The notes under the pieces are model-generated. The model saw only the letters and a program-made list of their open reading frames with translations. It made no database searches and was not told where the DNA came from. 52,438 nucleotides of DNA, from assembly GCA_948943595.1 (NCBI GenBank), contig CARBBL010000001.1, positions 1-52,438 on the forward strand, read 5' to 3'. The position numbers and the translations under genes are program-made. Source of the DNA: an uncultured Lachnospiraceae bacterium. GTDB taxonomy: Bacteria > Bacillota > Clostridia > Lachnospirales > Lachnospiraceae. The first letter of the stretch is position 1, and each line of letters starts with the position of its first letter. This document shows, one piece after another, positions 44,355 through 45,137 of this stretch.

Positions 44355-44729
44355 GTATTTGGAGAGCCTGCTAAAGCGGGCAGATGGGAGTTAGAGTGAA
44401 ATCAAAGATTTCACTCATCCTGATTTGTAGGCCCGCCAAAGCGGGCAGATGGGAGTTAGTGTGAAATCAAAGATTTCACTCATCCTGATTTGTAGGCCCG
44501 CCAAAGCGAGCAGATGGGAGTTAGAGTGAAATCAAAGATTTCACTCATCCTGATTTGTAGGCCCGCCAAAGCGAGCAGATGGGAGTTAGTGTGAGAAGTA
44601 CTTCTAACTGCCTGTGGCAGTTTCCACTCACAGCAAAGGCTGTTTCGTGGAGAAGTTCACACCGAAAAACGCAAAAGACTGCGTTTTTCATTTCTATTTG
44701 AGCCGCCAAAGGCGGCATGGAGGATTAAT
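44355..44729 (+). repeat. mosaic repeat locus R10: about 3.5 tandem copies of a 65-bp A+B unit (44355-44585), then C, F and E modules ending in GGAGGA-N5-ATG of the next gene
   Basis: The unit is gcccgccaaagcgRgcagatgggagttagWgtgaaatcaaagatttcactcatcctgatttgtag. Copies alternate in SNPs. Confidence 0.85.
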
Positions 44730-45137
44730 ATGAAAAATTTTAAAAGTTATATTCCTGAAAAGTATAAAAAATCTGACTTTCAGGAAATCGAAGAAGGAAT
44801 TTATAAGACTACATCACCTTATGATGATAAGGAGATCTTTGTCACCTCTCTTTCATTTGAGATGGAGCCAGAGTGTTTTGGTGAGGAAGATGCTTCACCT
44901 AGAAATCTTACACAAATCCCTATTGAGGGAATTTTGGACGAATTTTGTGTATATGTTACCGATTTCTATGACCAACTCAATGAAACAAGTGAAACGATTT
45001 GTTATCAGGAATTTGGATCATCTGACCTAGCCAACCTCCAAAGATTGAGAACAATCATTGGAAAACGGTTTTATGCACAATTATGTGATGATGAAGATGA
45101 GGAAGAGGAAGAAGAATATACAATGGTTATAGAATAA
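44730..45137 (+). CDS. hypothetical acidic protein (poly-Glu/Asp tail)
   Basis: The start sits 5 nt after the GGAGGA supplied by the repeat E module, and there is no recognisable domain. Confidence 0.6.
   Translation: MKNFKSYIPEKYKKSDFQEIEEGIYKTTSPYDDKEIFVTSLSFEMEPECFGEEDASPRNLTQIPIEGILDEFCVYVTDFYDQLNETSETICYQEFGSSDLANLQRLRTIIGKRFYAQLCDDEDEEEEEEYTMVIE

Follow-up and report, generated by a model that had tools for sequence, protein, structure and literature searches.

Analysis of a 52,438-nt stretch of DNA from an uncultured Lachnospiraceae bacterium (contig CARBBL010000001.1, assembly GCA_948943595.1; hereafter the window) identified a polar, modular and non-autonomous repeat whose terminal part, module E, ends directly at the start codons of unrelated genes. 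The 3' end of E carries a hairpin, a Shine–Dalgarno (SD) sequence and a spacer, and the arrangement of the copies suggests that the repeat probably occupies translation-initiation regions and rebuilds a ribosome-binding site (RBS) there. The family is abundant in gut Lachnospiraceae and their relatives, beyond the window. A literature search for the exact sequences and for Lachnospiraceae repeats, with most subscription journals outside its reach, returned no published description, and the E-type element appears to be previously undescribed in this family.

The window has a G+C content of about 37% and holds most of its genes on the minus strand, and its intergenic regions are crowded with this single modular repeat system. 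Its gene content, which includes mnmG, rsmG, parA, parB, serS, a che operon and an opp operon, indicates a position near the replication origin. Module E is composed of F-like sequence, the hairpin GCCGCCAAAGGCGGC and the motif ATGGRGGATTAnT, and its 3' end reads hairpin, ATGGRGG, 6-nt spacer, start codon. The sequence TTTGAGCCGCCAAAGGCGGCATGGRGG occurs exactly three times in the window, at 44697-44723 (+), 1046-1072 (-) and 11931-11957 (-), and in none of 100 shuffled versions. The first copy supplies GGAGG (44719-44723) and the spacer ATTAAT before an ATG at 44730, the second GGGGG and ATTAAC before a GTG at 1039, and the third GGGGGG and AGTAGT before an ATG at 11923. A preliminary description had reported E at these three starts, and all the sequences that it named are present as described; the hairpin loop, which it gave as TTT, reads AAA on the gene strand.

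E belongs to a larger modular architecture (Table 1). The modules follow the order A(n), then B or D, then F and E, with E terminal, as expected of a BOX-type order. Single modules are bracketed by GTGTGA...TCACAC, a bracket that extends to 10 nt in D, and are joined by a GC hairpin and the core ATGGGAGTTAGT; where E is followed by a further module instead of a gene, the junction is TTAGTGTGA. The related core ATGGGAGTTAGTGTGA has 15 matches in the window against 0.31 expected. The E hairpin folds at -10.4 kcal/mol. Hairpin stems covary between copies (GCCTGC/GCAGGC versus GCCCGC/GCGGGC; GTCGCAGC, GTCGTAGC, GTCACAGC and GTCGCGGC, each with its matching 3' arm), indicating that the hairpins are kept as structures.

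The preliminary description had proposed a census of E modules relative to start codons. The genome scan used one genome per species and took the E hairpin with its 5' flank as query, the SD being left out on purpose. At least 121 hairpin copies were recovered in at least 119 tiles. All but about four chance matches among the copies listed came from about 42 Clostridia assemblies; the carriers are chiefly Lachnospiraceae, such as Roseburia, Acetatifactor and Eisenbergiella, and one metagenome-assembled genome (MAG), MGBC139783, holds at least 40 E hairpins. All census figures refer to the matches listed. A copy was scored as abutting when the start codon of an open reading frame (ORF) of at least 100 amino acids (aa) lay 11-16 nt past the hairpin, with random ATGs from the same DNA as control. 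By this measure 82 of 121 copies (68%) abut an ORF, compared with 16% of random ATGs (p = 6e-37). Among the 84 copies that have an ORF of at least 50 aa, 73 keep the hairpin-to-start distance at 12 or 13 nt.

The repeat itself ends at the start codon. Column conservation sets in at about -55, takes in F, the hairpin and ATGGGGGATTAnT, and is lost immediately past the ATG, which is the start codon of 61 of 62 E-linked genes; the base after it is A in only about 54% of the copies. From -6 to -1 the spacer is A (.71), T (.87), T (.90), A (.73), any base, T (.76), while the native spacers of 405 other starts from this DNA stay at or below.45 throughout. This uniformity demonstrates that the SD and the spacer are part of the repeat. 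Orientation is equally regular, with the hairpin in sense to the downstream gene in 57 copies and antisense in 9; between co-directional genes the counts are 36 and 6, and convergent gene pairs enclose just 2 of the 66 intergenic copies. The E type of hairpin (GCCGCC/GGCGGC) abuts a gene in 59 of 83 cases and the A type in 3 of 25 (Fisher p = 2e-7), the A-type cores being mostly internal. Taken together, the census, the repeat-borne SD and spacer, and the filled and empty sites described below give good support, at the level of sequence, to the earlier proposal that E supplies an RBS to unrelated genes.

The genes downstream of E share no evident function. Among 20 E-linked genes of MGBC139783 that were scanned, 15 had a Pfam match, and Pfam domains start within residues 1-15 of E-linked proteins, which indicates that these N-termini are genuine. 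The products include an aminotransferase, a GNAT protein, TrkH, a DHH/CBS protein, two radical-SAM activases, GreA, a metallo-beta-lactamase-fold protein, a WbsX glycosyltransferase, Gpr, shikimate kinase and an M23 peptidase, among others. The E-linked genes of this MAG are functionally unrelated and do not look like a regulon. This bears on the idea that E is a shared cis-regulatory leader whose hairpin binds an RNA-binding protein or small RNA and co-regulates the translation of a regulon. The identical hairpin sequence across many genera, its position immediately 5' of the SD, and the covarying stems of related modules, which point to structure under selection, would all suit such a leader. 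However, the unrelated genes, to which lipoproteins belong as well, speak against it, as do sister-species orthologues that lack E and long composites that are 92-97% identical within a genome and occur in genome-specific variants, a pattern typical of amplified repeats. Nor does any Rfam 15 family reach its gathering score across the window, and relaxing the cut-off to E = 10 brought up nothing meaningful, the best sub-threshold hit (44300-44780) having an E-value of 1.7. We consider a regulatory leader very unlikely.

Comparison of sites with and without modules provided further evidence for insertion. The 220-nt A-D-F-E composite at 11924-12143 recurs in MGBC139783 ahead of different genes, in copies that match it at 92-97% identity up to the ATG, where the alignment ends. 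Between oppF and the next gene, three related species have 0, 1 or 39 nt from the oppF stop to a native TTG start, compared with 251 nt in the window. This fill ends ...GGGAGTTAAT-GTG, and the encoded VSRMVGNR aligns with LNRMVGNR, so that the GTG occupies the native start position. Between oppC and oppD, the orthologous gap is 12 nt (AGGAAAAGCAGA) and that of the window 107 nt, the insert preceding an unchanged MEDKKVLLSIKDL. At both opp junctions, in this between-species comparison, the modules span the entire gap from stop codon to native start. At the left edges of composites the flank resembles a native SD, as with the native-looking ggaggacgataATG before the composite upstream of 1039; in tile L057 (L-numbers such as L006, L057, L101 and L120 label the compared tiles or contigs) this flank is preceded by a good promoter.

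Copy number also varies among strains. The A array comprises 3.6 units in the window and in L121 and 2.6 in L120, L122 and L123, so that one 65-nt unit separates strains within the species of the window. Short metagenome contigs end inside modules, as expected of high-copy repeats. Two contigs considered as clean excisions, L153 and L140, were rejected as larger rearrangements or possible assembly chimeras. From about 3900, L140 departs within the D module and continues into a variant E (GCCGATAAAGGTGGC) ahead of another gene; L153 diverges from about 2060, just past a DUF3881 gene, and lacks the lipoprotein region. These differences reflect either repeat-mediated rearrangement, a strain-variable island or assembly chimeras. 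In L139 and L141 the flanks of the 11924-12143 composite are identical over about 850 nt and the composite itself differs at three positions, which suggests gene conversion among copies or the mixing of repeats in assembly.

Several observations weigh against the reading of E as an element that rebuilds the RBS at initiation regions. The census was ascertained by an exact 20-mer and drawn from 8-kb tiles rather than whole genomes. About 30% of the listed copies have no abutting gene, and nine of these read ATA at the ATG position. Two window composites, 38653..38830 and 33682..33802, are antisense. No within-species empty site was found, all compared strains carrying the composites, so the case for mobility relies on the between-species comparison and on copy identity. 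A domain scan of about 40 ORFs in the window detected no transposase, integrase or reverse transcriptase, and no consistent target-site duplication flanks the composites. Ribosome initiation at the E-linked starts, and with it use of the SD, is predicted from sequence. The copies away from genes, the antisense composites at gene 3' ends and the missing target-site duplication would also be expected if insertion were untargeted and selection spared only copies whose SD end abuts a start. Such a survivorship filter does not readily produce the 12-13-nt distance or inserts that fill the exact stop-to-start gap at two independent junctions, and random insertion would require an enormous excess of failures; we regard it as unlikely. 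Beyond mere selective filtering, placement may instead be targeted, with recombination or template switching at RBS-like cores as one conceivable route.

Transfer on other replicons left no trace, with no match in 2.9 million viral contigs and none among PLSDB plasmids. If the repeat were a hairpin element of REP/RAYT or IS200/IS605 type that travels as single-stranded DNA, its strand bias would stem from the direction of replication and not from that of the genes. The modules are indeed centred on GC-rich hairpins with adjacent conserved motifs, and near the origin, where the window lies, the minus strand bears most genes and most repeats. This mechanism nevertheless seems extremely unlikely: the composite at 44357-44729 tracks its plus-strand gene against the local bias, the exact abutment of start codons is left unexplained, no Y1 transposase was found among the roughly 40 window ORFs, and the units are direct tandems with local hairpins, not inverted REPIN pairs. 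Of the features of a MITE, inverted brackets (GTGTGA/TCACAC) frame single modules, whole composites lack terminal inverted repeats, and consistent target-site duplications were not seen around them.

The preliminary description had likened F and E together to a portable cassette of terminator and translation-initiation site that insulates and drives downstream genes; read as an adaptation, such a cassette would halt transcription arriving from upstream. At all three window copies of E, the accompanying F carries a terminator-like flag on the gene strand; most copies conserve the two modules jointly, and the SD part of the proposal is well supported. The termination part fared less well. The G+C core of F is a stem of 4-5 bp that folds at -4.7 kcal/mol (-11.2 with its A:U arms), and many E copies lack F altogether. 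No promoter-like site was found between F and the start codon or within the composites; candidates lie only upstream of composites, for example at 44187-44214 and 12197-12281. In addition, F+E occurs inside the opp operon and before pth-, glmS- and aroK-like genes (assigned by N-terminal sequence, with aroK confirmed by Pfam). An efficient terminator would silence these essential-looking or operon-internal genes, which argues against one. Efficient termination at F is therefore unlikely, and the cassette as a whole improbable; F may attenuate transcription or shape RNA stability. Insulation thus finds no support, and what remains of the claim that E drives downstream genes concerns translation only.

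Table 1. Repeat modules, composites and adjoining genes in the window
Feature	Position	Strand	Basis or remark
A array, 3.6 tandem units of 65 nt	44357..44594	+	period 65, 95% match
A unit: GC hairpin, AGATGGGAGTTAGTGTGA, GTGAAAT..ATTTCAC palindrome	within 44357..44594	+	
B module, bracketed by GTGTGA...TCACAC	44589..44662	+	repeat families
F module: hairpin GAAAAACGCAAAAGACTGCGTTTTTC, then T-rich tail; terminator-like but weak	44664..44689	+	folding energy
E module: ATTTCTATTTGA, hairpin GCCGCCAAAGGCGGC (44702-44716), ATGGAGG (SD 44719-23), spacer ATTAAT	44690..44729	+	
Conserved hypothetical protein, 135 aa, start abuts E	44730..45137	+	
Orphan lipoprotein, 152 aa, GTG start abuts E	581..1039	-	
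D-F-E composite	1040..1190	-	E 1040-1079, hairpin 1053-1067, F 1080-1105
Nudix-like ORF starting at E, broken by in-frame TGA	11459..11923	-	
A-D-F-E composite, 220 nt	11924..12143	-	92-97% identical copies in MGBC139783
A-like core (gcctgctagtgtaggcAGATAGGAGTTTCA) abutting the cheR GTG	28608..28652	-	repeat family match
Second antisense composite, without E, between two minus-strand genes	33682..33802	+	
Composite antisense to its neighbours, without E	38653..38830	+	
Conserved protein, 421 aa, GTG start at native TTG position	46494..47759	-	
251 nt of modules at the junction of oppF and the next gene, ending in A core AGATGGGAGTTAAT	47760..48010	-	
Degenerate insert, 107 nt, oppC-oppD, ending in CATGGGGGTTTGAGA	51083..51189	-	

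The genes behind the three window copies of E are of different kinds. The 135-aa protein is matched by 747 homologues that are 132-137 aa long, and its orthologues in three other species lack E and use the same start codon with an ordinary RBS (ggaggagggaatttatATG, ggggggatttatGTG). We rejected these loci as true empty sites because their genomic context differs; they confirm the start codon only. The product of the gene at 1039 carries an N-terminal signal peptide and a lipobox (LTGC), and no orthologue was found, its sole database entry being itself. At 11923, E and the ATG adjoin as reported, but the supposed Nudix gene contains an in-frame TGA at 11756-11758 (-), inside the motif EFP*GGIEK. 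The split recurs in other strains, where it is called as ORFs of 55 and 82 aa, and the locus is probably a fixed pseudogene behind a still intact E module. Recoding of TGA was ruled out, since long ORFs under translation table 11 are intact across the window.

Three further starts adjoin related sequences. The A-type end AGATGGGAGTTAAT-GTG is present at 47759, as the preliminary description stated, with GTG in place of the TTG found in three related species; given how rarely A-type cores abut genes, this case is an exception, and the label ApbE-like attached to the 421-aa product has no Pfam support. The fragment CATGGGGGTTTGAGA-ATG noted before OppD at 51082 was found, its ATG lying at the native position. 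The start codon, which the preliminary description had the repeat supply in two cases, may be native or repeat-borne. Orthologue alignments of the 421-aa protein and of OppD begin at residue 1. A sixth case, unlisted in that description, is cheR (start 28607), preceded by gcctgc..gcaggcAGATAGGAGTTTCA-GTG. At the 3' end of the histidine kinase, the last codons (CAT GAT TCA CGC TAA, stop at 38806-38808) are indeed encoded by repeat units, as had been claimed, but the overlap is antisense. The catggaggttag units at 38798-38828 are the reverse complement of the kinase's 3' codons, and in reverse complement the cores of the composite at 38653..38830 encode its last seven or so codons and the stop. 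The SD-like cores there lie on the strand opposite to the kinase and drive no gene.

Two side observations concern RBS-like sequences. In the tiles whose E copy is non-abutting (L006, L016, L021, L029, L035, L041, L103, L106 and L110), ATA often replaces the ATG, and the gene proper, which has an SD of its own, follows further downstream of such ATA-bearing copies; spurious initiation may have been selected against here. In addition, ATGGAGG, in which AT stands before the SD just as it does in the repeat core, precedes 17% of non-E starts, compared with a 9% background for the AT dinucleotide, for example at 43032, 43794, 20001 and 26136, and several of these starts carry variant hairpins. Genes with an old or variant repeat-derived RBS may thus be more numerous than the exact-hairpin count implies.

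The window contains other repeats and features of note. Repeats occupy every junction of the opp operon save oppD/oppF. Two near-identical 80-nt tandem units lie upstream of oppC at 52267-52426, each with a second hairpin besides an F-like one (GAAGAACGC..GCGTTCTTC); in the relative L138 the oppB-oppC gap is 72 nt. OppD (49334-51082, 582 aa) and OppF (48011-49321, 436 aa) are unusually long, and the ABC_tran domain of OppD is split in two by an insert that is common to its orthologues. A different repeat of about 125 nt forms an inverted pair (7737-7865 and 21460-21585) with 96-99% identity to MGBC139783 tiles L048, L062 and L068. A third family (GGCCGCATGGCCATCC...CTATGAAAGT..ACTTTCATAG) is found at 5764-5848 and 17281-17365, the latter copy at the 5' end of the ORF 16430-17389, and recurs in L098 (133-357) as a 90-nt tandem. 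Beside parA, 2.2 kb (7615-9809) hold no ORF of at least 100 aa and include repeat composites, among them 8377-8620 and 9038-9160. Tandem units of about 54 nt (TCATCTTACAAAGAAAAACATC...) occupy 28749-28895 in the 534-nt region upstream of cheR. Finally, 31178-33643 encodes an 821-aa protein with the 'shoulder' domain of the major vault protein (PF11978, E = 1e-20).

Under the reading that we favour, a copy would come to occupy the initiation region, from the upstream stop codon or native RBS to the start codon, and the gene's original SD would be displaced or lost on insertion. The start codon would then be preceded by the element's 3' end, with its canonical SD and a spacer of the optimal 6 nt. 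With the RBS rebuilt at this end, the gene would stay translatable and insertion would be tolerated even in operons. The stable hairpin would hold the SD free of upstream structure, and it may shield the 5' end of a processed mRNA. A more far-reaching proposal is that E represents a class of mobile elements in gut Lachnospiraceae that target RBSs or start codons and swap the native initiation region for a hairpin-SD-spacer cassette; we hold this possible, though doubtful. If it is true, a single repeat would govern how translation starts in tens to hundreds of unrelated genes per genome, essential genes included, and might set the 5' stability of their mRNAs as well; a host factor that bound the shared hairpin would turn these genes into a genome-wide post-transcriptional network.

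If initiation does proceed from E, commensals that abound in the gut would translate a large part of their genes from a repeat-delivered RBS. Such an RBS would bear on gene-start annotation, on expression predictions for Lachnospiraceae, and on the means by which selfish DNA enters operons without polar damage. For a family that is genetically hard to manipulate, E would also offer a candidate RBS that is context-independent and validated by nature. The variable 65-nt arrays are potential typing markers, like MIRU-VNTR in mycobacteria. Repeats of this kind break metagenome assemblies, and chimeric joins are possible.

The closest analogue in behaviour is MIRU (mycobacterial interspersed repetitive units; Supply et al. 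1997, summarised in PMC12548453), described there as apparently mobile units that insert at start codons with a coupled ORF and disturb target expression little. Like MIRU, the present system consists of short intergenic units, varies in tandem number (the 65-nt A unit), is oriented with its flanking genes and is sited at the start codon of the downstream gene. In the A array of the window, the 65-nt period (65 mod 3 = 2) ends each unit's ORF in a GTGA stop/start overlap. We considered a chain of NTGA-coupled mini-ORFs on this basis and rejected it: it fits the A array of the window and fails in L101, and the stops near the ATG follow from the consensus TTAGTATGA. The chain of 4-nt overlaps does not persist across variants, since the 64-nt unit in L101 reads GTG AAA TTT TAA, and the key feature, unlike in MIRU, is a canonical SD with spacer and hairpin, not a coupled mini-ORF. 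Phylum and sequence differ as well, homology to the mycobacterial units being unexpected at such a distance in phylum and G+C content, and the system is multi-modular with a dedicated terminal module.

In architecture the closest counterpart is the pneumococcal BOX element (boxA-boxB(n)-boxC), one of the modular, structured and non-autonomous repeats of Firmicutes, with a variable internal unit. As with BOX, copies can extend or alter neighbouring ORFs, and F is terminator-like, as is SPRITE (PMC3049150). BOX, RUP and SPRITE, however, favour positions 3' of coding sequences or between convergent genes and have a strand bias of only about 61%, and ORFs created by BOX lack a good SD (PMC3049150). 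E, by contrast, is enriched directly upstream of starts, co-oriented with the downstream gene (57 versus 9 among the matches listed) and endowed with a consensus SD. REP/BIME, ERIC and Correia are dispersed palindromic repeats that are transcribed along with genes and can alter mRNA stability, processing or promoters (PMC3049150). These proteobacterial repeats supply promoters, RNase sites or 3' stabilisers, not an RBS, and do not lie at start codons.

STAB-SD is a 5' stabiliser of Gram-positive mRNAs. Synthetic biology has its own parallel in bicistronic-design and translational-coupling cassettes (cited in PMC12548453). As with these, E would place a standard, context-independent RBS before arbitrary genes, and its SD-like leader sequence and hairpin could guard the mRNA against 5'-to-3' decay. 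Those systems are engineered or confined to single genes, whereas E, as known from its sequence, is a naturally dispersed repeat.

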